This document shows, in pieces, positions 15,925 to 31,994 of a stretch of DNA of 64,000 nt. How positions within the stretch are numbered: position 1 is the first letter of the stretch; every line of letters begins with the position of its first letter. The DNA is taken from contig CAYSCN010000008.1 in assembly GCA_964429585.1 (NCBI GenBank), positions 7,530 through 71,529 on the forward strand. The letters run 5' to 3'. Origin of the DNA: an uncultured bacterium. Its GTDB lineage: Bacteria; Desulfobacterota; Deferrimicrobia; J040. A model generated the notes under the pieces. The model was not told the origin of the DNA and searched no databases. It saw only the letters and a list, made by a program, of their open reading frames with translations. Made by a program: the position numbers and the translations under genes.

Positions 15925-16722
15925 TCAATACACAGCGATGACAGATTCTCCAGCTTTTACTTCGTCCCCGGGCCCCACAGTGGAAACCAGGCCAGGCCTA
16001 TGAGGAATCAAAACATCAACCTGAGAGCCGAAACGAATCATTCCAAGCTTCTGACCGGCAACGACTTCTTCTCCTTCCTCGACGTAGGAGCATATTCTCC
16101 TGACCAGCCTGGACGCTATCTGCACCACGCCAACCTCGAGGTCTCCATTCTGGATAATAGTCAGGACCCTCTCGTTTTCAAGGAGGGATTCCTTTTTCTT
16201 CAGGGAGAAGAATCCACCCTGAATCCTCTTCAGCATTCTCACTCTTCCTGGAATGGGAACTCTGTTTACGTGAACGTTCAACAGGTTCATACCTATCCCT
16301 ATGTGAATCCCCGAATCGGGAATAAGATTCTCGTGAATGAACTCAACAAGCGGTATCTTTTTCCCCTTCTTGACCGCAAATGGGAATTCTCCGCTTTTTA
16401 TCTCTTTTACATACAAAACCGTCCCATCGGCAGGAGAAATAATCTGTCCCTCCCCTTCAGGAGGAACCCGCTCTGGGTCCCGGAAAAAAAACAGAAGCGT
16501 AAAAGCGCCGGTTATCGCAACAGCCACGAAAACCCCTGCGGAGACCTGAAGTATCGGTTCTCCCACCGAGAGATATTTTCCAAGGGCAAATGAAAAATAC
16601 GCCGAAACAAGACCCATGACAATGGACCAGAGAACGACGATTTTCATCTTCAACTCCCACTTATTCCCCAGGGGTATGAAAATCAGAAGAGGCACCAAAA
16701 AAGCGAAGAAATAGACCATCAT
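15925..16722 (-). CDS. Phosphatidylserine decarboxylase-family (pyruvoyl-dependent) membrane protein
   Basis: N-terminal TMs. C-terminal region ...IRFGSQVDVLIPH resembles the PSD proenzyme cleavage/pyruvoyl-forming site (G-S). Size typical of short archaeal/bacterial PSD-related proteins. Confidence 0.55.
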   Translation of the reverse strand: MMVYFFAFLVPLLIFIPLGNKWELKMKIVVLWSIVMGLVSAYFSFALGKYLSVGEPILQVSAGVFVAVAITGAFTLLFFFRDPERVPPEGEGQIISPADGTVLYVKEIKSGEFPFAVKKGKKIPLVEFIHENLIPDSGIHIGIGMNLLNVHVNRVPIPGRVRMLKRIQGGFFSLKKKESLLENERVLTIIQNGDLEVGVVQIASRLVRRICSYVEEGEEVVAGQKLGMIRFGSQVDVLIPHRPGLVSTVGPGDEVKAGESVIAVY

Positions 16723-16765: not shown

Positions 16766-17944
16766 TCAAAATCCCCTCCTCCACCACAGATAAGGAATCA
16801 TCACGTATTCCATCAAAAAAGGAAGAGGATCTTTCATCGAAAACACCGCGTATTCCCTTTTACCTTTCAGGGATTCTATATATTCGGAAATACTCATCCT
16901 TCCAGATATTATCTCCTTCGCAACCGTAGGCACATCGGTTATCCACCTGACCCACTTCACCCCTATCTCGGGTCTCAGTCCATTTTGCACAGGTTCTCCT
17001 ACCATCAACCTGAAAAGAAGATACGGCAGATTCAACCCCGATGCCTTGGCAAGGGTGTGCCAACCCCAGGGCCGGCCGTTGATTTCGATGAATTTGAAAC
17101 ACCCGTCTTTTTCATCCCTCATGAACTCCACCTCGGCGAGCCCGAAATAACCTATTTCCTTCAAAAGGGCAGATGCCATTTCCCCAATTTCGGGGAGGTT
17201 GACCGACTCCGCAAATGTGGTGGCCTGCCCGAAATCCATAGGGTGCTGTCGACTTCTCCTCGCCGCCATTCCAGCCACTACCCTCTCACCATCAAACAAG
17301 ACAACGTATGAGTAAAGGTTCTTGGGGCCCCCCTCTATCATTTCCTGAACAACTATCAATTCCGGCTCAACAAATTCGGACATTTTCCTGAATTCCTCGA
17401 TCAACTCTTTCCTGGTATCTACTCTGACGGCCTTCTTCCTGGTCCTGGGGAAGTAATTCTCCTTGAAGCTAGGCTTCAAAACGAGAGGAAAGCGAGGCTC
17501 CTGAGACAGGATATCTTCTATACCTTTCCCCCTGTACATCCTCGGGATGGGTATTGACAGCTTTTCCGCGACCTCGTAGGCTTCTTTTTTCACGTAGAAT
17601 TTCCTTACCACATCCCAGGGCGGAACGGGTATCCGATAGTATTTCCCCAACTCTTCCCTGTTGACCGACAGCTCCTTTACAATCTCGTCGTTATTCGGGT
17701 AGACGACCCAGCCTTCGAGCTTTTCCTCCTTCGCCAGCTCTATCAGGTACTCCGCGAAGCGCCCCCCTGAAAGAAGGTCCCTTTTGAACGCTCTCCTTCT
17801 GACGTAGCGGGAATACCTCGAAATAGACCATTCATACTCTACCAGAAAAACCTGAACCCCTTGCTCCGAGAGGCTCCTTATCACGCCGAGCCCCTGAAAG
17901 TCTCCGCCCAGGATCAGGGCTCCCGGCTTTCCCGTATTCTTCAC
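16766..17944 (-). CDS. ATP-grasp family ligase (paralog 1 of 3)
   Basis: ATP-grasp core: FPLVLKPS...(K), IVVQEMIEGG, FGLAEVEFMRD..FKFIEINGRP. Paralogous to 18050-19294 and 20572-21825. Confidence 0.7.
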   Translation of the reverse strand: MKNTGKPGALILGGDFQGLGVIRSLSEQGVQVFLVEYEWSISRYSRYVRRRAFKRDLLSGGRFAEYLIELAKEEKLEGWVVYPNNDEIVKELSVNREELGKYYRIPVPPWDVVRKFYVKKEAYEVAEKLSIPIPRMYRGKGIEDILSQEPRFPLVLKPSFKENYFPRTRKKAVRVDTRKELIEEFRKMSEFVEPELIVVQEMIEGGPKNLYSYVVLFDGERVVAGMAARRSRQHPMDFGQATTFAESVNLPEIGEMASALLKEIGYFGLAEVEFMRDEKDGCFKFIEINGRPWGWHTLAKASGLNLPYLLFRLMVGEPVQNGLRPEIGVKWVRWITDVPTVAKEIISGRMSISEYIESLKGKREYAVFSMKDPLPFLMEYVMIPYLWWRRGF

Positions 17945-18049
17945 AATTTCCTCCTTCTATCCATGAACATAAATTTCATCATCTAGTAACACTCTGGAAT
18001 CGATATTAGTTCCACAGGAAACACCACAATAGAAACGTGTTTTCTCATT

Positions 18050-19294
18050 TCAGCCTTCATGGCGGGAATGATGAAGGCGAGATGCAAATTTTTTGATTCC
18101 AGATCTAATCAATTTAAAAACTCTCATTATGAATGGAACTATATCCCCGATGCTGAAAACGGAGAAAACCCTGCTTTGAAAGTATGGGGTCAAAAAACTC
18201 TTCGAAACAAAGCCGATTCCCTTGTATTTCAATATGTAATGCAAATCCTTGAACTCATCCACCCAGTATGTATCTCCCTTTATCTGCTTGCTCTCTCTCG
18301 CCATCGACACCATCTTCTTTCTGTTGAAGAATGAAAAGTAATATAACGCGGGAAAATTGATTCCACACCTGGTGGAAAGATATATCGACCGATTGAATCT
18401 GGGATTTATCTCCATAAGTTTATAAGTGCCGGTTCTCTTATCATTCTTGAACTCGGCGCAAACGTACCCCTCATAATTTACGTTTTTCAATAAAGAATCG
18501 ACCGAATCACGCACTTCGCTCACGTCTTTGCATTTTCTGACTACCGCCGGGACTCCAAATTCCCTGGGCATCATCCTCATTTTCCTGGAAGTCATGCATT
18601 TTAAGGGCGCCCCATCTATGAAAAGCACGTTGTAATTTATTCCCTCCGCATCATCTCCCGGAATGTACTCCTGCACCATCACCTCCAGTCCAAGCCTTTC
18701 AGCCCTATCTATCTCAGCCTTAAGCTCATCTGAGGTGAAAACCATCGTCAATTTCCTATCGAGTGCATCAACATACTTGTGACTGAATACCGGCTTGATT
18801 ATTAACGGAAATTTTAGTTCACGCACCTTTTCCACGTTCTCTATGGAATCCAGAGTTATCGTTCTCGGAATCGGTATTCCATTTGATTCTGCCAATTTAT
18901 ACATTTCTCTCTTGTTGAGTAATCTCTCCTTCACACTCCATTCACGAGAGTCAAGGATGAAGAAATCCGACAGTTCTTCCCTAAAATTGGAGACAGCCAG
19001 AACAGTCGCATCATCACATGGAAACAATATACCTTCCCCGTTTTCCCTGGCAATTGCCTTCAACCCGTTTATGAAATCGAGTTCTTCTGTTCTCGGGTCG
19101 CCTGTAAAATAGCTTTTCGTAACATACTTCGAGAAATGTCCCATATCCATTTCATCGTAACACACGGAAACTATTGGTATATCGTGCTCCCCCAGCGACC
19201 TTATGACACCAAGCCCCACTGTATGCGTCGACAACACGTATGCCGGAATTTTACCCGAAATTGAAGTCATCAAGCCAACCTGTCGCTTCCCCAC
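18050..19294 (-). CDS. ATP-grasp family ligase (paralog 2 of 3)
   Basis: FPLIIKPVFSHK, MVQEYIPGDD, YVCAEFKNDKRTGTYKLMEINPRF ATP-grasp motifs. Confidence 0.7.
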   Translation of the reverse strand: MGKRQVGLMTSISGKIPAYVLSTHTVGLGVIRSLGEHDIPIVSVCYDEMDMGHFSKYVTKSYFTGDPRTEELDFINGLKAIARENGEGILFPCDDATVLAVSNFREELSDFFILDSREWSVKERLLNKREMYKLAESNGIPIPRTITLDSIENVEKVRELKFPLIIKPVFSHKYVDALDRKLTMVFTSDELKAEIDRAERLGLEVMVQEYIPGDDAEGINYNVLFIDGAPLKCMTSRKMRMMPREFGVPAVVRKCKDVSEVRDSVDSLLKNVNYEGYVCAEFKNDKRTGTYKLMEINPRFNRSIYLSTRCGINFPALYYFSFFNRKKMVSMARESKQIKGDTYWVDEFKDLHYILKYKGIGFVSKSFLTPYFQSRVFSVFSIGDIVPFIMRVFKLIRSGIKKFASRLHHSRHEG

Positions 19295-19444
19295 GTTTAT
19301 TTGAAATACTCAAAATCCAAATCTATCCATTACCGAAATTCATTTCCAGATCCTCCTCCATACCAGAGCTTTCACTTGAAACAAATGATATGTTTTAATA
19401 TCCGGAGGTTAGTGACATTTCATTCAACCATTTCAGCACTATAA

Positions 19445-20575
19445 TTACCCTAAATGTTTGTAAAGTAAAGCTCCTGCCATTTTGAGCAGAAACATCGGAG
19501 TTTTCCTGAAAACCTTCCTGGCCACCAGACCGGCTCTAGGATAATACTCCTTGAAAGATTCTTCCTTGATGTCGAGCTTGTAGTAGTTTATCGATATCTC
19601 TTCTGTCCCCCAGCCCCTTTTAAACTGCCTCAAACCATCATTGTCGAAGTCTGTAGAACCGAAACAGAAAGTCCTGTATCTGTTTTCTATGGACCACTTT
19701 ATGGCTTCCCACATTACCAGGTTGTTGGGACGCAAATGCAGGTAATTTCTATCCGATGCACCATATCGATAAAGCACATTACCTCCAAAATTGTAAAAAA
19801 TACCACCAGCCACGTTCCTCCCATTTATAGAAGCCAGAACCACAAACCCCAATCCTTTTGAAATTATCTGCTCATACTCGCTTAGAATGAATTTCCAGGG
19901 ATAAGGCGGAAGGTTCTGCACGAGCTTCCTTGTCATACAATAAAGTCGATAAAACTCTCTAAGTGAATCCAGACTCCTGTAAATCCTTGCCTCGACTCCT
20001 TCTTTCTCGGCCTTCTTTATGTTTCGTTTCGTGCTGCTTCTGAAATTTTTTAGGACCTCACCCTCATCTCCGTCGAGCGTGAGCACATGCCTGAAGTAGC
20101 GGGCAGAAGGCTCCCCCCAGCCGCCATGCTCGCCAATCATCTTGAAAAGGACGTATTTCCAATTTCTTCTTCTCCCATGCTCGACTATCTCCCTGTAGAG
20201 CTCTTCAAATTCTGAATCATCGTAAAGGAGCGGTTCGCAATAATCTGCGAATGGAAGCGAGACCCCTCTGAGCCCGGTTACTGGACTGTTGACTTCCATT
20301 ACTGGAAAAACGGATACACCTTCATTCGAACTTAACGTGAAATAGACGGGTTCGTAACCGTAAGTCTTCTTGAGGACTTTTACCCAGTTGGTCGAGTGAA
20401 AAATGGTCGCGTTAGGATGAGCCAATACGAACTCATCCCAACCCGGGTATTCAAGTGGGTTTATTATGTGAATCATCGCATCTTCCTTTTGAATGATATT
20501 ACCTGTTGAAGGTCTCCGGAGAAGGAAAGACGGCGCCCCACGGTAAGGCCTTGTATGACGAGCCTTTTGTCTCAT
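19445..20575 (-). CDS. FemAB-like / GNAT-fold aminoacyl-transferase family protein (polysaccharide-locus associated)
   Basis: Likely true start MIHIINPLEYPGWDEF (~20476). Architecture and motifs (FHSTNWVKVL..., two GNAT-like halves) resemble the FemAB-related proteins found in EPS/exosortase-type loci. Confidence 0.65.
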   Translation of the reverse strand: MRQKARHTRPYRGAPSFLLRRPSTGNIIQKEDAMIHIINPLEYPGWDEFVLAHPNATIFHSTNWVKVLKKTYGYEPVYFTLSSNEGVSVFPVMEVNSPVTGLRGVSLPFADYCEPLLYDDSEFEELYREIVEHGRRRNWKYVLFKMIGEHGGWGEPSARYFRHVLTLDGDEGEVLKNFRSSTKRNIKKAEKEGVEARIYRSLDSLREFYRLYCMTRKLVQNLPPYPWKFILSEYEQIISKGLGFVVLASINGRNVAGGIFYNFGGNVLYRYGASDRNYLHLRPNNLVMWEAIKWSIENRYRTFCFGSTDFDNDGLRQFKRGWGTEEISINYYKLDIKEESFKEYYPRAGLVARKVFRKTPMFLLKMAGALLYKHLG

Positions 20576-21825
20576 TCCGACATCAGGCCGTTTCTGGTCA
20601 TGAGCAAAAGAGCTCCTCTTTTGAGTTTCCTAAAAGCCAGGTTTCTGATTTCCTGAAGCACCCCAACGAAGAAAGGCCCCGGGTCGGAGAGGGAAAAAAT
20701 GGCATAAGCCTTTTTTCCTCTTATGCTTCTCAACCACTGAATAAAATTCAATTCTCCCCGCCTCCAGTAATAATACGACGACCTGAGGTCCTGATAAATG
20801 TGTATCCACTTTACGCCGTTGTATTTCTGCTCCAGGTTTTTCGGGAGAGGTAGCCCCGTCAGGTCACAATACATGGAGTAAAGAAATTCGACTCCACTTT
20901 TTTCCGCCGTTGCGGAGCGACCCGTGGGACGCCCTATATTGGGTTCGATGATGTAATACTTGCCCGTCCTTCTGTCGAATTTCATCTCCAAATAACCGAA
21001 ACCTCTTCCATTTATCAACTCGAACAGACGAATAGTTTCTTGCCTGACCACATCGTTTTCACACTCGACTGCAAGACACGCCTGACCCGTCTTCGGTGGC
21101 CACTGCCTGACTTTTTTGCTGACAAAAGTAACAAGGGGGCGGCCTTCCTTGTCGAAATAACAGTTACACGTGTAATGGTCCGTTTCGTCACCTTCAACGT
21201 ACTGCTGCACTATCATTTGCTCCGCGTAAGGACTGTACTCTCGATACAGGTTCAACAATTCATCCGGGCCTTCTACCTTGAAAGCCTTTTGCTCAGTGAA
21301 CGCGCTCCACTCAGGCGTACGATATGAAGGCTTCAGAAAACATGGATACGAAATATTCCGGGAAATTCTCTCTACATCCTTTATACTCTCGACAAAATGC
21401 GTTTCCGGTATGGGAAGCCCTTTCTCTGCCGCAAACCTGTAAAATCGCACCTTGTCTATCATGGTCACTACCATCTCATGTTCGGGCAGAAGGACGTGAT
21501 AATACTCTTCGAGGCGAGCGCGGTGTCGAGACACTATGAGCACATTCAGGTCATGGCATGGATACAAGACACCTTTCACATCCAGCCCCTTCCCTATCTC
21601 AATGAGAGTGTCTATCAGAGAATCGTCCTCAGTATTCGCGACAACGATTTTCTCGCATACCCGGGTCGTGCAATTGTAATGTCCCCGCACGTTGGAGATT
21701 GCAATCACGGGCACACCACGAGATGCCAGAATGCGAGCCGCCTGGAGGCATTGCATGAACTCGAGGCCGATCAACACAGCCCTGGGTCTGTCCGGCGGAT
21801 GTTTTTTCTTTTTGAGGATATACAT
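20572..21825 (-). CDS. ATP-grasp family ligase (paralog 3 of 3)
   Basis: YPCFLKPSYR, MIVQQYVEGDE, FGYLEMKFDRRTGKYYIIEPNIGRP ATP-grasp motifs. Stop overlaps the FemAB-like gene start. Confidence 0.7.
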   Translation of the reverse strand: MYILKKKKHPPDRPRAVLIGLEFMQCLQAARILASRGVPVIAISNVRGHYNCTTRVCEKIVVANTEDDSLIDTLIEIGKGLDVKGVLYPCHDLNVLIVSRHRARLEEYYHVLLPEHEMVVTMIDKVRFYRFAAEKGLPIPETHFVESIKDVERISRNISYPCFLKPSYRTPEWSAFTEQKAFKVEGPDELLNLYREYSPYAEQMIVQQYVEGDETDHYTCNCYFDKEGRPLVTFVSKKVRQWPPKTGQACLAVECENDVVRQETIRLFELINGRGFGYLEMKFDRRTGKYYIIEPNIGRPTGRSATAEKSGVEFLYSMYCDLTGLPLPKNLEQKYNGVKWIHIYQDLRSSYYYWRRGELNFIQWLRSIRGKKAYAIFSLSDPGPFFVGVLQEIRNLAFRKLKRGALLLMTRNGLMSE

Positions 21826-21854: not shown

Positions 21855-22967
21855 TCAGACAAATGCCAATAATAATCTTTTCACCGCATCAGCGGTGTAT
21901 TCAATTTGCTTGACCGAAATCTCCGGGTATATCGGCAGCGAAACGAACTCTTCCGCGCTGCTTTCCGCAACGGGGAAACTGCCCTTTTCATATCCGAGAA
22001 ACCCGTAAGCATCCTGAAGGTGAATTGGAACGGGATAGTGAATCCCACAATATATCCCTTTCTCCCGAAGAGCTTCTATCAACTGATCCCTCTTCTTCAC
22101 TCTGATGACGTAGAGGTGATATACATGAGTTCCGTAGTCTGCCTCAACTGGCGTGACGATTCCCTCCGCATCACCCAGCAAGTCGTTGTAAAGATCGGCG
22201 ACCACCCTCCGTGATTTGTTGTACTCGTCGAGGTACTTCAGTTTGACTGAAAGAACTGCCGCCTGAATCCCATCCATTCTGCCGTTCCACCCTATGAAGT
22301 CGTGTTTGTATTTACGCGACTGGCCGTGGTCCCTCAGCATCCGAATCTTTCTATCTATCTCCGGATTGTCGGTCACAACGGCACCCGCTTCGCCGTAAGC
22401 ACCCAGATTTTTCCCGGGATAAAAACTGAAACATCCGACATCTCCTATCGAGCCCGCCTTCCTACCCTTGTAAACGGCACCGTGTGATTGGGCGGCATCC
22501 TCGATCACGAATAGACCATATTTCTTCGCTATCTCCATAACGAGGTCCATATCCGCCATCTGACCAAAAAGGTGAACCGGTATTATAGCCTTAGTCCGTT
22601 CGGTGATCATGGCTTCAATCTGTTGCGGATCGATGTTGTAGGTGTCCTCCAGAACATCCACGAATACAGGCTTTGCGCCACAAAACGAAATCGCCTCCGC
22701 CGTGGCAATAAAAGTATTCGGCACTGTTATGACTTCATCCCCTGGCCCAACCCCTATGGCGAGAAGAGCGAGCCACAGAGCTTCCGTCCCGCTGCCGACC
22801 CCAATGGCATATTTGGTTCCACAATACGCCGCAAACTCTTCCTCGAATTTCTCGACAAAAGGCCCTCCTGCAAATGCTGTCTTCTCGAAAACACCTTCGA
22901 GAGCTTCGTTGATTTCTTCTCTGATAGATTCGTACTGTGTCTTTAGATCTAAAAATGGCACTTTCAT
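21855..22967 (-). CDS. DegT/DnrJ/EryC1/StrS-family PLP-dependent sugar aminotransferase (WbpE-like)
   Basis: MKVPFLDLKTQYESIREEI...; conserved PLP-binding region; family-typical length (370 aa). Confidence 0.9.
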   Translation of the reverse strand: MKVPFLDLKTQYESIREEINEALEGVFEKTAFAGGPFVEKFEEEFAAYCGTKYAIGVGSGTEALWLALLAIGVGPGDEVITVPNTFIATAEAISFCGAKPVFVDVLEDTYNIDPQQIEAMITERTKAIIPVHLFGQMADMDLVMEIAKKYGLFVIEDAAQSHGAVYKGRKAGSIGDVGCFSFYPGKNLGAYGEAGAVVTDNPEIDRKIRMLRDHGQSRKYKHDFIGWNGRMDGIQAAVLSVKLKYLDEYNKSRRVVADLYNDLLGDAEGIVTPVEADYGTHVYHLYVIRVKKRDQLIEALREKGIYCGIHYPVPIHLQDAYGFLGYEKGSFPVAESSAEEFVSLPIYPEISVKQIEYTADAVKRLLLAFV

Positions 22968-23521
22968 TTTTTCACCTCGTCTAGTTTTCTGAGTACTCTG
23001 GCCGGATTTCCCACGACAACAGTTCGGGGTGGCACGTCTCTCGTAACCACGCTGCCGGCTCCCACAATCGCGCCCTCACCTATTGTCACCCCGGCCAGTA
23101 TGGTTGCGCTCGAACCGATGGAAGCGCCCTTTTTCACGACGGTAGGGATACACACCCAATCTTCCTCGGTTTGGAGCTTTCCATCCTCTGTCGTGGCCCT
23201 CGGATAGAGATCGTTTATGAAAGTGACGTTGTGACCAACAAATACACCGTCTTCGATCTTTACGCCCTCGCATATGAACGTGTGGCTCGAGATCTTGCAG
23301 TTTTTCCCGATGCATGCGTTTTTCTGTATTTCCACGAAGGTGCCGATCTTGGTGTTGTCGCCTATCTCACACCCATATAGATTGACAAATGCGTAAATTT
23401 TCACGTTTTCTCCGAGTTTTACATCGGGCGCAATACGGCACGTGTTCATAACATCCTGAGCCATGGGTTCCCCCTGTTTCTGTTGTTTTTGTGATATCAA
23501 ACTTAGATATTCATCTGACAA
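22964..23521 (-). CDS. Hexapeptide-repeat (left-handed beta-helix) sugar N-acetyltransferase (WbpD/PglD-like)
   Basis: Tandem [LIV]G hexapeptide repeats (IGDNTKIGTFVEI..IGKNCKIS..VFVGHNVTF..IGSSATILAGVTIGEGAIVGAGSVV). Start probably at MAQDV. Overlaps both neighbouring genes. Confidence 0.85.
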   Translation of the reverse strand: MSDEYLSLISQKQQKQGEPMAQDVMNTCRIAPDVKLGENVKIYAFVNLYGCEIGDNTKIGTFVEIQKNACIGKNCKISSHTFICEGVKIEDGVFVGHNVTFINDLYPRATTEDGKLQTEEDWVCIPTVVKKGASIGSSATILAGVTIGEGAIVGAGSVVTRDVPPRTVVVGNPARVLRKLDEVKK

Positions 23522-24554
23522 AAGCCAATTTGTTGGGAAGGAGTTCTACTCTAGAGCCGCCGCTTTTCAGAGATATGGTTGCCGCTTCCAGAATTCTAAC
23601 AACCTCCATTCCCTCATAACCGCTTGTAATTGGCCTCTGTCTCTTTTCGATACACTCCAGAAAGTGTCCTGTCTCGACCTTCAAGGGCTCGATCTGTTTT
23701 ACGTAGGGAATGTACATGTCGCCGTAATGGTAAGAATAATGAAATTCAGCGAAAGTATCGTAGTGCGGCGGTCTCTCGACCCTTTTGTCGTAAATTTTTA
23801 TCTTTTCGAGAGGCTCCGTATCATTGTAAACTAGCATTCTTTTACTTCCCACGAAGACCATCTCCCTGACCTTATTCGGATCAAGCCAGCTGCTGTGCAC
23901 CGTTGCGAATCCTCCATTCGGGAAGTCGATCGTCATGTTGGTGACATCTTCGATTCCCTTCGTAATGTGTGCCTTCCCCTGACAGTTGACCGTTTTGGGC
24001 GGGATGTTGAGAATGTACAGAATTATTGAAATGCAATGCGGCGCGAGGTCCCACGTGACGTTGATGTCCTCCTGGAAAAGACCGAGATTGAGCCTCCTGG
24101 AGCTGACATAGTAGATCTCCCCCAGGTCTCCAGATTCGACTATCTCCTTGATTCTCCTGACAGGAGCAGAATATATGAATGTGTGCCCCACCATCAAAAC
24201 GAGGTTTCTGTCCTCGGCAACCTCAACCATCTCCTCGCACTCTTTCACCGAGCGGGCCATCGGTTTTTCCACGAAGGTATGTTTTCCGGCGTGGAGGGCC
24301 TTCATGGCAATCTCATGATGGGTCCTGACAGGCGTTGCAATGGCCACCGCATCCACTTCCGGATCTCCAGTAACGTCATCGACGTTTTTCGTGGTCTTCA
24401 CTTCGGGGTAAAGTTTCTTGATATAAGCAAGCCTCTCCTCGCTCAAATCACAGACCCACTTGACTTCACAGTTGTCATGGAACCTGAAATTCCTCGTAAG
24501 ATTGGGACCCCAGTAACCGCACCCGATGACGCCTACTTTAATAATTTTCGACAT
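23511..24554 (-). CDS. Gfo/Idh/MocA-family NAD-dependent sugar-nucleotide oxidoreductase (WbpB-like)
   Basis: N-terminal Rossmann KVGVIGCGYWGPNLTRNF; Gfo/Idh/MocA fold. Confidence 0.85.
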   Translation of the reverse strand: MSKIIKVGVIGCGYWGPNLTRNFRFHDNCEVKWVCDLSEERLAYIKKLYPEVKTTKNVDDVTGDPEVDAVAIATPVRTHHEIAMKALHAGKHTFVEKPMARSVKECEEMVEVAEDRNLVLMVGHTFIYSAPVRRIKEIVESGDLGEIYYVSSRRLNLGLFQEDINVTWDLAPHCISIILYILNIPPKTVNCQGKAHITKGIEDVTNMTIDFPNGGFATVHSSWLDPNKVREMVFVGSKRMLVYNDTEPLEKIKIYDKRVERPPHYDTFAEFHYSYHYGDMYIPYVKQIEPLKVETGHFLECIEKRQRPITSGYEGMEVVRILEAATISLKSGGSRVELLPNKLAFVR

Positions 24555-25662
24555 ATTCCCTCCTTCTCCTGGATCGAATCTTCCCCGTGGCTTGTTCCAT
24601 CAATACAGGAAATGTTTTTAGCATTATGAAAAAATCCCTGACCATCGATATTTTCGCGCCATATCTTATGTCCAGCCTTATCATTTCTTTGAATGTGGTT
24701 TTGTTTTTCCCGTTCACCTGCCACAACCCGGTCAGCCCTGGAACCATCTCCACCCTTTTCTTCTGCCACTGGTCGAACTCCTCGAACTCGTAGGGAATGC
24801 ACGGCCTCGGTCCCACAAGGCTCATCTCCCCTCTGAGCACATTTATCAACTGAGGCAACTCGTCTATACCCAGCTTTCTCACGATTCCGCACAGCGGAAT
24901 CACCCTTTCATCCTTTTTCTCGTCCAGCTTTTCCATCGGTTTTTCGCTCTTTATCAATGTTCTCAGATACTCTTTGTGAACTTCCTGAGGAGCACCGATG
25001 TGCATGGTTCTGAGCTTGTACATGGTGAAAATTTCTCCCATGTATCCCACCCTTTCCTGCTTAAAAATCACAGGCCCCGGTGAGACCATGCGCAGATACA
25101 GGGCGTATAACAGGAAAAAGGGAAACAAGACTGACATCACAACGAGGGAAACAAAAACATCTATTGCCCTTTTCCAGAAAGGCAACGGAGACGATGTGAA
25201 CCTGGAGAAAACCCCTCCACTTTTTCTTTTCAGAGATGGAAGGTGAAATGGCTTTCTCCTGTCCCTCATGTCAGTGGTGTTCCACCATCTATCTGGATAT
25301 GAGTAAAGCCGATATCCGATCCTTATGTCCTTCTGCGAACAAAACTCCGTTATGCTGCTCAACAGGTTCCAGGCTCCATCCACCGGTGTGTGAGGAAGTA
25401 GGAGCCCTATTATGGTGCCCTCTTCCATGAACCCAAGTTCGTCTGTAACCCTCATCCTTTCCCTCAAATACTTGATTAGTTCGGACGCTTTTTTCTCCTC
25501 CTGGCCATCCTCTGGGATTATTTCGATCAGCGAAAAAGGCAACCCCGTCCTATCCGATCTCTCTCTCTCCTTCAACAGTGCCTTATGGAACTCTTCCTCG
25601 CTCAGGATTCCGTCAACGCACTTTCCATTCTTTTTTGTGACCTCGATTATAGAAGAAAACAC
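24538..25662 (-). CDS. Polyprenyl-phosphate sugar-1-phosphate transferase (bacterial sugar transferase, WbaP/PglC/EpsL-like) with N-terminal cytoplasmic degenerate GGDEF-like domain
   Basis: C-terminal Bac_transf motifs: SPGPVIFKQERVGYMGEIFTMYKLRTM, DELPQLINVLRGEMSLVGPRP, GLTGLWQVNG. Single TM (IDVFVSLVVMSVLFPFFLLYALYL). N-terminal ~150 aa align to a GGDEF fold with an RxxD I-site-like motif (RVTD) but EEGTI in place of GG(D/E)EF. GTG start with GAGGAGG RBS. Confidence 0.8.
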   Translation of the reverse strand: MFSSIIEVTKKNGKCVDGILSEEEFHKALLKERERSDRTGLPFSLIEIIPEDGQEEKKASELIKYLRERMRVTDELGFMEEGTIIGLLLPHTPVDGAWNLLSSITEFCSQKDIRIGYRLYSYPDRWWNTTDMRDRRKPFHLPSLKRKSGGVFSRFTSSPLPFWKRAIDVFVSLVVMSVLFPFFLLYALYLRMVSPGPVIFKQERVGYMGEIFTMYKLRTMHIGAPQEVHKEYLRTLIKSEKPMEKLDEKKDERVIPLCGIVRKLGIDELPQLINVLRGEMSLVGPRPCIPYEFEEFDQWQKKRVEMVPGLTGLWQVNGKNKTTFKEMIRLDIRYGAKISMVRDFFIMLKTFPVLMEQATGKIRSRRRREYVENY

Positions 25663-25958: not shown

Positions 25959-27125
25959 TCAATATGTCTTCATTAGCACAAACCCAATGGCCACGCTGTT
26001 GATAGTTATGTCGCTCCCTATGTCCGTTTTAGCGTCCTGCTCCGATCTGACTCCTGAGATGAAAACTGATAGGGTCTTCATGAGCATGTATTCAACTCTG
26101 ACGTTGAAATACGTCAAAAGCAGGTCCTCGGTACTGTCCAGCGACCTGTGCTTCCTCAAACTGCCTCTCATGAGAAAGGATACCTTCCTGGAAATCCACT
26201 TGTAAGTGGCTGCAAACCCATCCGTCTTTGTTGTCCTCCCGAAGATTCCTCCCCCAGAGAAATAACGCCACGCTGAAACTCTGAGAAAACTCTTTTCTGA
26301 AGGTGTGATTTCCGTGGCAATACTCCCTGAAAACTCCGTGGTCGACTTGTTGCTCTCCTCAAGCAATCTCGTAACTCCAGTGGTCAGTATATAGGTAACC
26401 GAAGGTGAATACATATAATTCAAGAATAATGAGGCCGTGTAAGTGTCGGTGTCGATTCCATCGTCGTAATCGGTTGTGGAGTACCCGAACGACAGTCCTT
26501 CCTTGAACCTTTCCGTTCCGGAATACGTAACCCTGCCAGAAAAACTTTGCGTCTTTGAATCCGATACCCCTACATCTTCACTGTATTGAAGTGTCGTATA
26601 CATCCCCGTTGCAAACAGTGTCAATCTCGGTGACATTTTGAAAGTAATCGACGACTCACCAGAAAGAGTGTAGTGGTCGCTCCGCCTGGTGATTTCGGTC
26701 TGACTCCCCGTGGCGCTCTCCAGGGGAACTGTTTCGGAAATCCCAAGGCCAGGTGTGAAAACGTAGGTCGTCTTGAACGAAGCGCCGAGTCTGTCCGTGA
26801 AATCCCTGTCATATCTAACGGATACGTCACTTGAATTGGCTACTCCGTTTAGATGTTCATTTTTCGTGTAGTATTCCCCCGTTACCGAACCCACCAAATA
26901 TAGAGCGTCTCTTTTTCCTGTAACGTCCACTCGTAGTACGGGCTTGACCACTGTAAACACGTCTTCTTTTCCCGGATTTCTTTCGCTTTCTATGTTGTCC
27001 GACCAGTTCAAACTCACCGAAATCGATGGTGTTATCTTCGAGTCATATGAAACAGCCGAACCCACGTTGAAGAAAACGAGAAAAAACACCCCAACCAAAC
27101 AAAAAGTTACTTTTTTTCTGACCAA
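25959..27125 (-). CDS. Outer-membrane beta-barrel protein of the polysaccharide locus
   Basis: Signal peptide. Alternating hydrophobic beta-strand pattern throughout. C-terminal ...GFVLMKTY ending in aromatic residue (OMP signature). Confidence 0.6.
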   Translation of the reverse strand: MVRKKVTFCLVGVFFLVFFNVGSAVSYDSKITPSISVSLNWSDNIESERNPGKEDVFTVVKPVLRVDVTGKRDALYLVGSVTGEYYTKNEHLNGVANSSDVSVRYDRDFTDRLGASFKTTYVFTPGLGISETVPLESATGSQTEITRRSDHYTLSGESSITFKMSPRLTLFATGMYTTLQYSEDVGVSDSKTQSFSGRVTYSGTERFKEGLSFGYSTTDYDDGIDTDTYTASLFLNYMYSPSVTYILTTGVTRLLEESNKSTTEFSGSIATEITPSEKSFLRVSAWRYFSGGGIFGRTTKTDGFAATYKWISRKVSFLMRGSLRKHRSLDSTEDLLLTYFNVRVEYMLMKTLSVFISGVRSEQDAKTDIGSDITINSVAIGFVLMKTY

Positions 27126-27138
27126 TTTGGAATCCTTT

Positions 27139-27828
27139 TCACGGAATTATTATTATATCGCCCGGCTTGAGGTAGACGTTCTGACTCAACTCACGAGACT
27201 TTACAATTTTGTAGTAATCGATATCCATTTTCTTTTGATACGATCCATTCGACCGGATTAGAACTATTTTTGACGGAGACGCAAACACCGTGAACCCCCC
27301 CGCCATAGAAATCGCCTGAAGGAGGGAAATTTTTTCTTTAAGAATATACATCCCAGGCTTGGCCACCTCACCCATGATGTAAAACTTAGGATAGTTGACC
27401 TCCTTGACCACCACAGTGACAACGGGTTCAATGATGAACTCCTTCAATCTTACTTCTATCAACTTTCGAAGCTCCTCGGTTGTAAATCCGGATGCGGTTA
27501 CGTCCTGAATGAGCGGAAGGGAAATCTTACCATCAGGCCTGACTGTAACATCCTGAGTCAACTCTTCATTGTTCCAGACAGAAATGTGAAGTACGTCGCC
27601 AGGGCTGATTCTGTAAGGTTCGGTGTCATCGGAATTACCAGCACCGCTTCTTTCAATCATAGCACGTTTCCCTTTTTCCTTAGCAGAAACCGGCTCTTTT
27701 TGTATGGGCGTTGTCACACGACAGGCGGCCAGCACCATAAACCCCGCCACGATGAACACGATTTTCATAAAAAATTTCCCTTTGTAGCTTTTCATCCTTA
27801 CTCCCTTCGCCCCCGACCGTGGAAACAA
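27139..27828 (-). CDS. Polysaccharide export protein, small Wza/EpsA-like periplasmic lipoprotein (Poly_export + SLBB)
   Basis: Lipobox ...FMVLAAC. YRISPGDVLHISVW Poly_export motif. PGDIIIIP C-terminal SLBB-like. Likely start MKIVFIVAGF (~27768). Confidence 0.8.
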   Translation of the reverse strand: MFPRSGAKGVRMKSYKGKFFMKIVFIVAGFMVLAACRVTTPIQKEPVSAKEKGKRAMIERSGAGNSDDTEPYRISPGDVLHISVWNNEELTQDVTVRPDGKISLPLIQDVTASGFTTEELRKLIEVRLKEFIIEPVVTVVVKEVNYPKFYIMGEVAKPGMYILKEKISLLQAISMAGGFTVFASPSKIVLIRSNGSYQKKMDIDYYKIVKSRELSQNVYLKPGDIIIIP

Positions 27829-28317
27829 TCAGAGGTAATATTTTGGAATGTTCAGCTTGATGTTGGCGGAAACGCTATTCAGAAGAAGCGTTACCCTCTC
27901 ATCTCCAGAGAGATACCCTTCAAAAACGACCTCTAGATCCTTGAACATCCCTCTTTTTATTGCGATCCTCTCATTTCTGGTGAACCTTCGTTTCTTGTTA
28001 ACCATGTGTATGAACCCGTCTCTTTCCCTGTCTCTTATATGCTTTACTATCTCAGGTTCCACCTCGACAGGTCCCGAGCCGAAGTCTATGAACCCACCAA
28101 CTCCCCTTGTGTACTTGATTTTGTGATAATTTTTCTCAAGTTCTGTCTCTACAAAAATGTATCTCGGAAACAACGGTTCAATAACCGTGAAAACGGCGTT
28201 TCTACGTATCGTGGTTTTCTTCAAAAGCGGGAGATAACAATTAATCTTTCCCTCAGTGAGGTTCTTCACAACTTTCAGCTCTTCCTTGGGCTTTGTGAAA
28301 ACAAGATAATAGGGCAT
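27829..28317 (-). CDS. NusG-paralog, RfaH/UpxY-like operon-specific transcription antiterminator
   Basis: NGN domain YYLVFTKPKEELKVVKNLTEGKINCYLPLL...VIEPLFPRYIFVE closely parallels RfaH (WYLLYC...VNCLAPMI...SEPLFPNYLFVE). C-terminal KOW-like region. GGAGGA RBS. First gene of the long minus-strand operon. Confidence 0.8.
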   Translation of the reverse strand: MPYYLVFTKPKEELKVVKNLTEGKINCYLPLLKKTTIRRNAVFTVIEPLFPRYIFVETELEKNYHKIKYTRGVGGFIDFGSGPVEVEPEIVKHIRDRERDGFIHMVNKKRRFTRNERIAIKRGMFKDLEVVFEGYLSGDERVTLLLNSVSANIKLNIPKYYL

Positions 28318-28413: not shown

Positions 28414-29904
28414 TCAGGCGTCCTCGACAATACCGCACTCTTTCATCTTGTAAAGGAGTGCTTTGTAAGAAATATCCAGAATCTTCGCCGCTTTTCTTCT
28501 GTTCCAGCGCACGTGGTTCAAAACCTTTTCGATAACCAGTCGCTCTGCTCTCCTGGAGGCAGAACGTGATATTTCCTTCAAAGGAACTTTGCCCGAAGCG
28601 AGATCGATGTTCTTTATCAGGAAATCTATGTCCTGAAAACTCCCACCGTTCCCCGGCCTCGAAATTTCCCTTTCAATTCTCACAGCTGCGCTTCCACCGG
28701 CAGATCCTGCACCCCTCGCTGAAGCGTAAAACTTCTCTTCGGTGCTTTTTTTCATAAGCTCCGTGAAAGCAACGGACTCAGAACCCATAATGACTATGCG
28801 CTTAACGTAATTTTCGAGCTCTCTGATATTCCCGGGCCACGAATATTCCAAGAAGCTGTTGATGAGAGAATCGGATATAACTTGTCCCTCCTTGTTGTAC
28901 ATGAAAGAGTATTTCTTCAGGAAATAATCGACAAGCAGAGGAATGTCTTCCTTCCTCTCTCTCAGAGGTGGAAGGTGTATGTTGACGACATTCAGGCGGA
29001 AATAGAGATCTTCTCTGAAATTCCCTTCTCTTACCGCTTCTTGTAAGTCTCTGTTTGTCGCGCTCACGATACGAACGTCCACTTTGACGTCTCTTTCGCT
29101 ACCCACAGGCGAAAACACCCCGTCCTGAACGACCTGGAGCAATTTCGACTGTATTCTGATAGGCATCTCGGATATCTCATCGAGGAATATAGTCCCCATT
29201 GAGGCAATCTCGAACTTCCCTCTCTTTTTTTTGTAAGCGCTCGTGAACGCGCCTTTTTCGTACCCGAAAAGCTCACTTTCCAGAAGATTATAAGGTATTG
29301 CAGCACAATTGACTTTAACGAATTTTTTGTCGGATCTCCTGGACAACTTGTGGATAGCCCTCGCGACAAGGTCCTTACCAGTTCCACTCTCTCCGGTAAT
29401 CAGAACCGTTATGTCGGTACCGGCCACCTGATCCACTATCGCCTTTATCTTCTTCATTGACTCATAGCGAGAAAAAACGAGGTTGTATTCGTTTTCCGGG
29501 TCCGTCAATGTTTTCAACTCTTCCAGTTCTCTCTTGTCTCCCACCACGTTTATCGCCCTGTGTATCCTGACCAGTAGCTCATCGTATTCGAACGGCTTTT
29601 TCAGGTAATCTGTGGCCCCAAGCTTCATCGCTCTCACAGCCTCTTCGATTTCAGATTGAGCGGAAATCAAAACTATCGGGACGTATCTGTTCCCATTCAA
29701 GAAAATAGGTATCAGGTCGATGCCATTCCCGTCAGGAAGAAAAATATCGAGTATCACGATATCAGGCTTTTCCTCGAAGAAAGTCGTTTCTGCCTCTAAC
29801 TTGGTCGTCGAAACAACCACGTTCATTCCATGCTGAAGAAGAAATCTCTTCGTCATGTTGAGGAATGAAGGGTCATCATCTATCAAAAGAACTTTGTTCC
29901 CCAA
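28414..29904 (-). CDS. sigma54-dependent response regulator (NtrC family: REC + AAA+ sigma54-activation + Fis-type HTH), PrsR-like
   Basis: REC domain (LLIDDD...ILDIFLPDGNG). AAA+ with GESGTGKD, ESELFGYEKGAFTSA (GAFTGA-type) and arginine-finger region. C-terminal HTH ...NRRKAAKILDISYKALLYKMKECGI. TTG start with AGGAGGGAG RBS. Confidence 0.9.
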   Translation of the reverse strand: MGNKVLLIDDDPSFLNMTKRFLLQHGMNVVVSTTKLEAETTFFEEKPDIVILDIFLPDGNGIDLIPIFLNGNRYVPIVLISAQSEIEEAVRAMKLGATDYLKKPFEYDELLVRIHRAINVVGDKRELEELKTLTDPENEYNLVFSRYESMKKIKAIVDQVAGTDITVLITGESGTGKDLVARAIHKLSRRSDKKFVKVNCAAIPYNLLESELFGYEKGAFTSAYKKKRGKFEIASMGTIFLDEISEMPIRIQSKLLQVVQDGVFSPVGSERDVKVDVRIVSATNRDLQEAVREGNFREDLYFRLNVVNIHLPPLRERKEDIPLLVDYFLKKYSFMYNKEGQVISDSLINSFLEYSWPGNIRELENYVKRIVIMGSESVAFTELMKKSTEEKFYASARGAGSAGGSAAVRIEREISRPGNGGSFQDIDFLIKNIDLASGKVPLKEISRSASRRAERLVIEKVLNHVRWNRRKAAKILDISYKALLYKMKECGIVEDA

Positions 29905-30135
29905 AAATTCTCCCTCCTTTGTCGTGTGATTATAATAGTATCAATTCCTGTGCCAAGAAACGAAAAACATCACCCATATTTTAAAAATTTTTATCTTACT
30001 GTAATCAAAGGGGAAAAAAATTTATCCAAATAGCAATATTAATTCACAATGATATAGAAATAATTACATTGATAATATCTTACACGTATTGGGTAATATT
30101 TTACTCACTATTGCTTTTTCGTCAGATTTATTCGG

Positions 30136-31281
30136 TCACGGAACGGGAATGGTGAAAGACACAGTCGTCCCTTTTCCGGGCTCGCTTTCTATCGCGAGCT
30201 CGCCGTTTTGAACTTCCACCAGTTTCTTGCATATGGAAAGCCCCAGCCCGACAGTTCCTATCCCCTCCCTCTTGAATATCATCGGGTCACTCGTGAGAAT
30301 CTCTCTTATTTTTTCCTTTGGCATACCACATCCCTTGTCTGAAACCGAAATCAACGCTTTTCCATTTTCAGCATGAGAAACAGACACCACTATTTCCGAA
30401 CCCGCAGGTGAAAATTTTATTGAATTCACCATCAGGTTGTCGAGAATCTGCCCTACTTTCAGTCTATCCGCGTAGACGAGCACTTTGTCCGAAACATTCG
30501 TCCTCCTGATTTTTATGTTCTTCATCTCCACGTAAGGAGCCAGAAAGTCTATGCATTCGTCTATCAGCTCTCCTATGTCGAATGTCGTGGAGTTGAGATT
30601 TATCGTCCCCTGTTCCACGGCATGATAGTCCAGGAAAGACTCAATCATCACAAGTGCTCTCTTTAGACACCTTCTTCCTTCCACAAATATGCTCATCTCG
30701 TCTTCTGTAAGCTTGTGGCTGCATGATTCCCCTATCATCTGATGATACCCGTTCAGAACCGTCAAAAGGGTTTTCAGGTCATGGCTTGCCGTGGAAATCA
30801 TGAAAGACTTGAATGACGATAGTTTCTCCACCTCTCGGTTCTTTTCCTCCAGCTCCTTGACGAGCTTCTTAAGCTTTCTCTCGTTTTCCTTTCTCTGTCT
30901 CTCGGCTCGTAGCTTCTCATAGGCTCTTCTAAGAGAATGCAGAATGATCTCTGGCTCAAACGGCTTCATGATGAAGTCATACGCTCCGAGCTTGAGGGCT
31001 CTAACTGCCGACTCGAGTGTCGCATAACCTGTGATGACTATAACAGGAATATCGGGTCTGGTCCTGCCAACCTTCCCCAGAAGATCGAGACCGGACTCAC
31101 CGTTGAAGTTTATATCAGTTATCATGATAATACTTTTTCTTTTTTTCTTTATGAAATCGTAAGCATCTCCCGGATTTATGAATTTTTCCACATTAAACCC
31201 TTTTGACGCCACGATTTTCGCCAGCGACTCGAGAAACTTCTCATCGTCCTCAACTATCACGACAGTCGTCCTTCTCATCAA
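30136..31281 (-). CDS. Hybrid histidine kinase (N-terminal REC + HisKA + HATPase_c), cytoplasmic
   Basis: REC (VVIVEDDE...IIMITDINFNGESG). H-box SHDLKTLL. N/G boxes (NLMVNSIKFS, DKGCGMPKEKI, GTVGLGLSICKKLV). No TM. Confidence 0.8.
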   Translation of the reverse strand: MMRRTTVVIVEDDEKFLESLAKIVASKGFNVEKFINPGDAYDFIKKKRKSIIMITDINFNGESGLDLLGKVGRTRPDIPVIVITGYATLESAVRALKLGAYDFIMKPFEPEIILHSLRRAYEKLRAERQRKENERKLKKLVKELEEKNREVEKLSSFKSFMISTASHDLKTLLTVLNGYHQMIGESCSHKLTEDEMSIFVEGRRCLKRALVMIESFLDYHAVEQGTINLNSTTFDIGELIDECIDFLAPYVEMKNIKIRRTNVSDKVLVYADRLKVGQILDNLMVNSIKFSPAGSEIVVSVSHAENGKALISVSDKGCGMPKEKIREILTSDPMIFKREGIGTVGLGLSICKKLVEVQNGELAIESEPGKGTTVSFTIPVP

Positions 31282-31994
31282 CTCTCCCCCTCAACAGGTA
31301 TGATTACCCTGAAAATCGCCCCTTCATTCCCTTCTTCGTAAGCTATTTCTCCGCCTGCAGCGTCGACTATGTTCCGGCATATCCACAGCCCGAACCCTCT
31401 TCCCTCCCCTTTTTTGGAGGGCACAGGTTCCTCGAAGAGCCTGCCTCTCAGGTCACTGCTCAAGCCGCCACCTGAATCTTCAACTTCAATTCGGGCCAAT
31501 TTTCCGTCCGACTTCGCCCTCACCTCTATCCAGCCTCCGCTCGAAGTTGCATCACAGGCATTTGAAACAAGATTCGACAAAACCTGTCTGAGAGAAGAGC
31601 GGGAAATAGAAAGCGGTGTTCTGCCATTCCCCACAGCCACACCAAAAGCAACCCCTTTCGACTCCGCTATCTTTCTGTAGATGTTTTCCATGAACCGTGC
31701 CTCTTCCTCCAGAATGGCTATTTCGCGTCCATTCCAGTTGAACCCGCCACCGAATGAAAACTCATCTATTGTCTCCTCAATTCTCTTGACTTCCTCATAA
31801 ATGGCTCTCAAATTTTCAAGGGCAACATCCGTTTTCCTCCGTCCTCCTCCATACTTCTTCATTTCTTCGGTAACTATGTAAATGTAATTTTTAATTGTCC
31901 CAAGAGGCGTTCTTATCTCGTGTAACAACGACCTGTAATATTTCTCCCTTTCACGCAATATATAGAGCTCCTCTATTAGCTTCTCAACTTTCAT
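31278..31994 (-). CDS. Soluble histidine kinase (HisKA + HATPase_c), translationally coupled to the hybrid kinase
   Basis: H-box LHEIRTPLGTIKNY. ATPase boxes (LSNLVSNACDAT, DSGGGLS, GRGFGLWICRNIV). ATGA overlap with the downstream gene. Confidence 0.75.
   Translation of the reverse strand: MKVEKLIEELYILREREKYYRSLLHEIRTPLGTIKNYIYIVTEEMKKYGGGRRKTDVALENLRAIYEEVKRIEETIDEFSFGGGFNWNGREIAILEEEARFMENIYRKIAESKGVAFGVAVGNGRTPLSISRSSLRQVLSNLVSNACDATSSGGWIEVRAKSDGKLARIEVEDSGGGLSSDLRGRLFEEPVPSKKGEGRGFGLWICRNIVDAAGGEIAYEEGNEGAIFRVIIPVEGES

Follow-up and report, generated by a model that had tools for sequence, protein, structure and literature searches.

The window analysed here is a stretch of 64,000 nucleotides from an uncultured bacterium of the Desulfobacterota (contig CAYSCN010000008.1, positions 7,530 to 71,529). 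It contains a large minus-strand cluster for exopolysaccharide (EPS) synthesis of the Wzx/Wzy type, and within this cluster sits a gene for a small monotopic phosphoglycosyltransferase (PGT) preceded, in the same polypeptide, by a compact cytoplasmic domain derived from the GGDEF domain of diguanylate cyclases. We refer to this N-terminal domain (N-domain) as mini-GGDEF. Details of the gene and its product are as follows:

24538–25662, minus strand: whole gene, mini-GGDEF plus small monotopic PGT; a 374-aa open reading frame (ORF) with an identical database protein, P0002
25670–25675, minus strand: Shine-Dalgarno sequence AGGAGG, 7 nt 5′ of the GTG start at 25662, read from the sequence
25285–25617, minus strand: mini-GGDEF domain, residues 16–126, α0-β1-α1-β2-β3-α2-β4 (family hidden Markov model (HMM), E = 2.8e-34)
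25549–25569, minus strand: α0 motif E32-R-E-R35-S-D37-R38 (conservation and alignment to the GGDEF domain of WspR)
25441–25458, minus strand: RxxD I-site motif R69-x-R71-V-T-D74, which includes a further conserved Arg at −2 (conservation; gap-free on the RxxD of 3IGN, WspR and PleD)
25408–25425, minus strand: degenerate active-site position E80-E-G-T-I-I85, replacing GG(D/E)EF (profile alignments)
25213–25284, minus strand: linker, residues 127–150, predicted disordered (predicted local distance difference test (pLDDT) below 50 for 128–148 in the full-length model)
25084–25212, minus strand: interface helix (151–156) and re-entrant membrane helix (162–193) with W163-K-R165 and P181 (secondary structure of the model; PglC homology)
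24598–25173, minus strand: Bac_transf (PF02397) catalytic domain, residues 164–355 (Pfam, E = 1.3e-54)
24859–24864, minus strand: catalytic Asp-Glu dyad D267-E268 in GIDELPQL, followed by P285-R286-P287 (110-sequence alignment)

An earlier reading of this DNA (the original prediction) had singled out positions 25213–25620, which correspond to residues 15–150 of the minus-strand ORF 24538–25662, and all of the peptides it quoted are present: DGILSEEEF (residues 17–25), RERSDRTGLPFSLIEI (33–48) and RVTDELGFMEEGTIIGLLLPHT (71–92). An annotation artefact or a wrong start codon was ruled out by the strong Shine-Dalgarno sequence and by the presence of the domain in all close homologues. Roughly 150 cytoplasmic residues had been predicted upstream of the membrane segment: a cytoplasmic N-domain is indeed found there, but only residues ∼16–126 are folded and the rest (127–150) is disordered linker. 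The full-length AlphaFold model (pLDDT 87; predicted template modelling score (pTM) 0.82) places N-domain, disordered linker, interface helix, long helix (162–193) and catalytic domain in that order, and its pTM hints at a defined arrangement of the N-domain with respect to the catalytic domain.

The catalytic half is that of a PglC-type enzyme, in line with the priming PGT with a Bac_transf domain originally proposed. Bac_transf scores 184.8 bits against a Pfam cutoff of 27; TIGR03025 matches at E = 7e-67, yet remains under its full-length cutoff. When the full-length model was searched with Foldseek, the C-terminal half retrieved PglC (8e37; E = 8e-15, TMt 0.80) and WbaP (8t53), and the N-terminal half retrieved GGDEF domains. 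Across an alignment of 110 sequences R165 is invariant and W163, K164 and P181 are nearly so, while the columns of D267-E268 and P285-R286-P287 are invariant or nearly so; the role of D267-E268 as catalytic dyad we carry over, by assumption, from established knowledge of PglC. The catalytic core, the Asp-Glu dyad, the PRP motif and a re-entrant helix that carries a conserved Pro and a basic N-cap are features the protein has in common with PglC-type small PGTs. In PglC, however, no cytoplasmic domain stands at the N-terminus, whereas here the re-entrant helix comes after ∼150 additional residues. What had been described as a single transmembrane segment is a membrane helix (162–193), but one that is re-entrant by homology to PglC, and a helix of this type puts the N-domain and the active site both in the cytoplasm. 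The gene product is a small PglC-type monotopic PGT that primes undecaprenyl phosphate for Wzx/Wzy-dependent EPS.

Two other classes of PGT were considered and rejected. The models for large monotopic PGTs (monoPGTs) such as WbaP, WcaJ and EpsZ (TIGR03022 and TIGR03023) match the core only (∼160–357), at scores of 190 and 174 bits where 403 and 411 are required, and the window protein has neither a Pfam match to PF13727 (CoA-binding-like) nor, in its model, a bundle of four transmembrane helices. The XrtA/PEP-CTERM EpsB_2 sugar transferase (TIGR03013) reaches 122 bits where 393 would be needed. The original claim that the architecture resembles neither WbaP nor PglC is borne out: matches to WbaP, WcaJ and EpsB_2 are all sub-threshold and confined to the catalytic core, and the N-domain corresponds to no other known PGT accessory domain.

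Searches with the single sequence found nothing useful: the first 165 residues gave no match to Pfam or NCBIfam even at E ≤ 10, phmmer against the PDB returned noise only, and a word-indexed homologue search returned one weak match. In sequence searches the relationship to GGDEF became visible only with a family profile. This profile, built from 61 homologous N-domains, retrieved 3IGN (E = 2.4e-11), GcbC (1e-9), DgcR (5e-8), WspR (1e-7) and PleD (0.015) from the PDB; about 26 of the 33 PDB matches listed are GGDEF proteins, and the RxxD of the family falls on that of the I-site. Taken by itself, the C-terminal half of the profile retrieved 3IGN (E = 1.9e-7) and PleD, gap-free across RxxD…LPxT. 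The GGDEF profile search (PF00990) suggested in the original prediction thus gives a divided answer: it fails for the single sequence, but 29 of the 61 family members match individually (PelD_GGDEF (PF16963) and GGDEF_2 each match five). Members with more than one copy of the domain pass the PF00990 gathering score (45.4 and 31.4 bits against 23.8), so that a few database entries, P0021 for example, are already labelled GGDEF.

Structure comparison, also put forward at the outset, pointed to GGDEF. The AlphaFold2 model of residues 16–130 has a pLDDT of 91.8, and among PDB entries Foldseek gave the first 26 places without exception to GGDEF domains. These include c-di-GMP-bound (cyclic di-GMP) GcbC, DgcR and PelD, with PelD structures at ranks 14, 21 and 24. 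The core α0-β1-α-β2-β3-α-β4 superposes on GGDEF domains with template modelling (TM) scores of 0.6–0.83, one helix taking the place of α1/α2. The N-domain is homologous to GGDEF and has the GGDEF fold; the diguanylate-cyclase fold that had been recognised by eye is therefore real, but truncated rather than complete. Neither outcome that the original prediction had named as a refutation, the lack of a significant GGDEF match or a match to another PGT accessory domain, was obtained.

The closest PDB structure is 6KHU (TM 0.83, root-mean-square deviation 1.7 Å across 110 columns), a 131-residue 'DGC protein' from Thermotoga maritima. Profile positions 3–112 align to residues 5–117 of the chain (E = 1e-5), and given the nearly equal length of the match 6KHU appears to share the compact topology. 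Identity is only 19%, however, and 6KHU is not PGT-linked. No publication on it was found in a literature search; it may structurally represent compact GGDEF-derived domains.

As a cyclase the domain is dead. In agreement with the original prediction, alignments place EEGTI (residues 80–84) at the position of the GG(D/E)EF motif, for which the family consensus is D-(D/E)-x-x-I. In addition, nine residues are deleted, relative to cyclases, from the substrate- and metal-binding segment DxFKxxNDxxGHxxGD; position 49, the site of a metal-binding Asp, is Ile in the window protein; and the N-domain has no counterpart of the C-terminal α4/β5. In PleD the Asp of DxD, the Asn/Asp of α1-α2 and the C-terminal phosphate-binding Lys/Arg bind metal or GTP. 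With GG(D/E)EF absent, nine residues deleted and α4/β5 missing no cyclase activity is possible: the N-domain is a truncated, catalytically dead mini-GGDEF of ∼110 residues. One could nonetheless imagine that the N-domain is still active as a diguanylate cyclase of an unorthodox kind and supplies c-di-GMP locally; homology to GGDEF cyclases speaks for this, and nothing else does. We give this virtually no credence and rejected it on the missing motifs: the sequence already effectively refutes it, given EEGTI, the deletion, Ile in place of the metal-binding Asp, and the loss of α4/β5 together with its phosphate-binding Lys/Arg.

What the domain has kept is a set of residues at the inhibitory (I-) site. 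Conservation was computed across 284 distinct domain instances, with values of 1.00 for G77, 0.99 for R38, R71, D74 and Y122, 0.98 for E32, 0.94 for R35 and 0.93 for R69. The motifs that stand out in the homologue alignment are F25, E32-R-x-R35-x-D37-R38, F43-S44 and R69-x-R71-x-x-D74-x-x-G77-W78, with further conserved positions at G86, L89-P-x-T92, A97 and Y120-x-Y122-P123. The RVTD motif (R71-D74) had been predicted to persist five residues upstream of the degenerate active site, and so it does: ELGFM separates it from E80, and RxxD is 99% conserved.

Of particular interest is the correspondence with WspR. R38, R71 and D74 align to R198, R242 and D245 of WspR (the 44 residues between both arginines were checked by counting), and R71xxD74 likewise corresponds to R359xxD362 of PleD, whose R313 is presumably the equivalent of the α0 Arg R198. 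In WspR two arginines hold c-di-GMP at the I-site, R242 and R198, the latter contributed by an adjacent GGDEF domain (De et al. 2008, PMC2270323), and the R198A and R242A mutants each purify nucleotide-free (PMC2270323). WspR and PleD differ from the window protein in being active enzymes in which the site serves product inhibition; in a mini-GGDEF, which has no active site, the output would be the PGT.

The survey of homologous fusions called for in the original prediction shows a large family and not the oddity of one genome. A HMMER search across 1.84 billion cluster representatives (∼50%-identity clusters) returned 1,701 mini-GGDEF proteins at E ≤ 1e-10. No PDB cyclase scores above 46.7 bits, whereas the 150th library match still reaches 116 bits, and 1,701 therefore approximates the size of the family, canonical GGDEFs scoring too low to be counted. 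With the full-length protein as query thousands of Bac_transf proteins were found, and all of the best 120 homologues carry the N-terminal module; full-length relatives come from Desulfobacterota, KSB1, Acidobacteria, Deferribacteres and metagenome-assembled genomes of Cytophagia. A locus scan with the single protein found mostly Verrucomicrobia PGT cores that lack the mini-GGDEF.

Among the best 150 matches to the domain a PGT core was detected in 53, preceded by one copy of the mini-GGDEF in 45 instances, by two in six and by three in two. Any other recognisable domain in these 150 proteins is either a PGT (the same 53) or PilZ, with or without a Receiver. The remaining entries are mostly short and consist of the N-domain only, and several are truncated or retain frameshifted remnants of the PGT helix start ('PxWKR'). 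The mini-GGDEF is dedicated to PGTs and EPS loci.

Several variants of the fused architecture were seen. Tandem or triple copies precede the PGT core in P0021, P0103, P0122–P0131 and P0136, of which P0021 and P0103 have two; in P0021 both copies retain RxxD and the α0 Arg motif, an arrangement that would fit intramolecular cross-linking by a ligand. A subfamily comprising P0027, P0037, P0039 and P0101 has an extra N-terminal coiled-coil-like segment of ∼70–90 residues and, after the PGT core, a conserved C-terminal extension of ∼110 residues (FAIDAFFNKVEKK…RYFGISRLIDFEKKSQ). P0175 (271 aa, probably truncated) begins with several membrane helices followed by a mini-GGDEF, at which point the sequence ends; its layout recalls that of large monoPGTs, with the mini-GGDEF in the position of the DUF of WbaP.

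In rare instances the mini-GGDEF also occurs outside PGT polypeptides. P0177 (L083:120-1235) is an intact Receiver-mini-GGDEF-PilZ protein, and P0239 and P0274 consist of mini-GGDEF plus PilZ; in P0177 and P0239 the PilZ domain has the canonical motifs RxxxR and (D/N)xSxxG. P0239 lies in an EPS cluster directly upstream of a small Bac_transf PGT gene (250–265 aa by start choice; L084:9495-11559, ENA ERZ26222911, 69.6 kb), and the Receiver ORF that precedes it is probably part of the same gene, frameshifted in a contig of 5x coverage. P0274 (L085:6466-9254) is 36% identical to P0239 and stems from one and the same metagenome sample; behind it lie, in this order, GT2, small Bac_transf PGT, Poly_export and Wzc-like genes, so that the PGT is one gene away. 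A standalone mini-GGDEF of 147 aa, P0001 (JGI 3300056388, 18-kb contig), is preceded by a Wzc-like gene (Wzz + GNVR + AAA_31) and followed by two GT4 genes and Wzy_C; no PGT gene is among the genes listed for this neighbourhood.

The arrangement in L084 and P0177 looks like the 'split' counterpart of the fusion in the window. Whether fused or split, the mini-GGDEF travels with the initiating PGT, and in its split form it also travels with a bona fide c-di-GMP sensor. The co-occurrence with PilZ supports the view that mini-GGDEFs belong to the c-di-GMP network.

That the mini-GGDEF binds c-di-GMP and controls the activity of the PGT is a proposal based on sequence, to which we assign about an even chance. 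The N-domain would be held on the cytoplasmic face, beside the PGT active site, by the PglC-type re-entrant helix. There c-di-GMP would bind at R71/D74, the site being completed by R38 of a second mini-GGDEF; the likeliest form of the ligand would be an intercalated dimer that bridges two mini-GGDEFs back to back, as in WspR and activated PleD. The bridged pair could be two protomers or tandem copies within one chain, and the partner could possibly also be a Receiver-mini-GGDEF-PilZ protein. The resulting change in oligomeric state or conformation would raise or lower PGT activity, in a direction not predictable from sequence, and the committed first step of repeat-unit synthesis would come under direct second-messenger control. 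The broader form of the proposal – that mini-GGDEFs are an unrecognised, multi-phylum class of c-di-GMP effectors in which a dimer cross-link via RxxD and the α0 Arg gates the PGT – we put forward more tentatively, as a possibility falling somewhat short of even.

Two precedents make a ligand-gated PGT plausible. The accessory domain (DUF) of WbaP binds uridine nucleotides, and uridine monophosphate (UMP) inhibits the enzyme (PMC10942596). In Myxococcus xanthus, EpsW~P acts on EpsZ by contact, the PGT being regulated through dimerisation (PMC12802240). The likeness to WbaP-type large monoPGTs (PF13727) is one of concept, a cytoplasmic nucleotide-binding N-terminal domain with dimerisation and allostery by UMP (PMC10942596); the accessory fold is unrelated, and the window protein has neither PF13727 nor the four-transmembrane bundle. 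EpsW~P/EpsZ offers a signalling domain that exerts post-translational control over the PGT with which an EPS pathway of the Wzx/Wzy type begins (PMC12802240), and the placement of Receiver-mini-GGDEF-PilZ genes beside small PGTs looks related to it. EpsW, in contrast, is a separate single-domain response regulator, its target is a large monoPGT, and the system involves no GGDEF-like domain or c-di-GMP.

A third comparison, with PelD of Pseudomonas aeruginosa, which like PopA and BcsE-like proteins belongs to the degenerate-GGDEF I-site receptors of c-di-GMP, was given as an example in the original prediction and holds only in part. Both proteins have a membrane-tethered dead GGDEF domain that keeps RxxD, in PelD with post-translational control of an exopolysaccharide, a control that for the window protein is inferred. 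PelD, however, is a separate protein of four transmembrane helices, GAF and full-length GGDEF that belongs to a synthase-dependent pathway and needs R402, whereas the window protein has a truncated domain without an R402 equivalent or a GAF and is fused to a Wzx/Wzy-type priming enzyme. Membership of the PelD family proper (PF16963 architecture) was rejected: there is no GAF and no transmembrane bundle, and the locus is of the Wzx/Wzy type, not pel.

Several observations weigh against c-di-GMP control. Position 103, which aligns to R390 of PleD, is D in 39% and N in 25% of the family but Arg in only 4%, and it is S in the window protein; by the usual correspondence between PelD and PleD we take the same position to be the equivalent of PelD R402. 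PelD absolutely requires R402 besides RxxD (PMC8461298). With Arg at position 103 lost, a cis I-site of the PelD/PleD type is incomplete; what is conserved, RxxD together with the α0 Arg, is a WspR-like set and not a PelD-like one. The window protein is itself atypical, having F78 where 92% of the family has W, N99 where the family has K/R, and a one-residue insertion (G82). The conserved residues E32, R35, R38 and D74 might be structural salt bridges. The PilZ domain of the split forms equally allows the mini-GGDEF to be a PGT-facing output or docking module and not the sensor. Finally, no gene for a diguanylate cyclase, a phosphodiesterase or a PilZ protein lies within the 64-kb window.

Some of these points suit a different explanation, namely that the mini-GGDEF is an exapted, nucleotide-free scaffold for dimerisation or docking that couples the PGT to partners such as a PilZ protein, a response regulator or the Wzc-like co-polymerase/BY-kinase, its conserved Arg and Asp residues forming a protein-protein interface or internal salt bridges. 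Degenerate GGDEFs without ligand binding exist, LapD and CsrD among them. The missing R402/R390 equivalent and the heavy truncation of the fold speak for such a scaffold; Receiver and canonical PilZ domains could alone supply the signal input in the split loci, the standalone copy directly follows a Wzc-like gene, and there is a known case of a PGT controlled through contact with a Receiver protein (PMC12802240). Even so, the 99%-conserved residues are exactly the three c-di-GMP contacts of WspR, while nearly all other GGDEF-specific residues have drifted. To our knowledge, moreover, RxxD is generally lost from degenerate GGDEFs whose I-site does not bind c-di-GMP. We consider the scaffold explanation unlikely, though not negligible.

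Alternatively, the former I-site may sense another ligand – (p)ppGpp, GTP, another cyclic dinucleotide, UMP, a UDP-sugar or an undecaprenyl-diphosphate-linked glycan – in a WbaP-like feedback. Departures from canonical I-sites (R69-x-R71-x-x-D74, the ERxRxDR motif and D/N at position 103) are compatible with this, as are the binding of uridine nucleotides by the accessory domain of WbaP, with inhibition by UMP (PMC10942596), and a structure of PleD with pppGpp in the PDB (9g86). Nothing points positively to any specific alternative ligand, however; the PilZ domains found together with mini-GGDEFs speak for the c-di-GMP network, and of the GGDEF fold the GTP/substrate site has been destroyed. 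Of these two explanations the second seems to us the more improbable.

Wzx/Wzy-dependent pathways are far commoner than synthase-dependent ones, and the initiating PGT is a logical control point because it draws on a limited pool of undecaprenyl phosphate shared with peptidoglycan synthesis. Direct post-translational control by c-di-GMP is well characterised for the synthase-dependent cellulose, alginate, Pel and poly-N-acetylglucosamine (PNAG) systems (PMC8461298), whereas how Wzx/Wzy-dependent pathways are regulated post-translationally is incompletely understood (PMC12802240). Degenerate-GGDEF I-site receptors in EPS systems are already known from PelD and BcsE (PMC8461298); what is new is the target, a PGT that primes undecaprenyl phosphate in a Wzx/Wzy-type pathway, the direct fusion, and the minimal form of the domain, which standard models have overlooked. 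No prior description of a GGDEF-PGT fusion was found in a full-text literature search, which did not extend to the monoPGT fusion survey of O'Toole et al. 2021. If c-di-GMP does control the window protein, this would be the first instance in which a second messenger directly switches the step that initiates Wzx/Wzy-dependent polysaccharide synthesis, and R38, R71 and D74 make the hypothesis concrete and testable with mutants. Irrespective of ligand, a domain derived from the cyclase fold is found on PGTs in ∼1,700 clusters from Desulfobacterota, Acidobacteriota, KSB1, Deferribacteres, Bacteroidota and other groups. Pfam and NCBIfam largely miss it, and a dedicated mini-GGDEF profile would re-annotate thousands of proteins now called simply 'sugar transferase'.

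The remainder of the EPS cluster in the window comprises the following genes:

28414–29904, minus strand: sigma54 response regulator (matches the PEP-CTERM-box regulator TIGR02915 below threshold)
27829–28317, minus strand: RfaH-like antiterminator
27139–27828, minus strand: Wza-like exporter
25959–27125, minus strand: outer-membrane barrel
21855–24554, minus strand: trio of Gfo/Idh/MocA dehydrogenase, hexapeptide acetyltransferase and DegT aminotransferase
16766–21825 and 15925–16722, minus strand: three genes of the ATP-grasp type ('carbamoyl phosphate synthase-like'), one of the FemAB family and one resembling phosphatidylserine decarboxylase
10892–12376, minus strand: Wzy/O-antigen-ligase-like polymerase
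8336–9850, minus strand: Wzx flippase
1871–2626, minus strand: BY-kinase-like ATPase
within the EPS cluster, minus strand: UDP-glucose dehydrogenase and GT4 transferases
306–1838, 4368–5627, 5730–7103 and 14932–15864, minus strand: four ORFs (310–510 aa) that match no Pfam or NCBIfam model at the thresholds applied

Genes neighbouring the PGT show PEP-CTERM-associated similarities, all of them sub-threshold. Neighbours resembling WbpB, WbpE and WbpD point to a 2,3-diacetamido sugar, or something related to it, as the UDP-sugar donor of the PGT. The ATP-grasp, FemAB and phosphatidylserine-decarboxylase-like genes suggest decoration of the sugar repeat unit with amino acids or peptides. Directly upstream of the cluster (28414–31994, minus strand) lie the sigma54 regulator, a hybrid Receiver-histidine kinase and a second histidine kinase, followed by the RfaH-like antiterminator; with these regulators and the antiterminator upstream, transcriptional control appears to be layered over any post-translational control. 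A similar EPS neighbourhood surrounds distant homologues of the PGT gene in Desulfosarcina and on a TARA Oceans metagenome scaffold.

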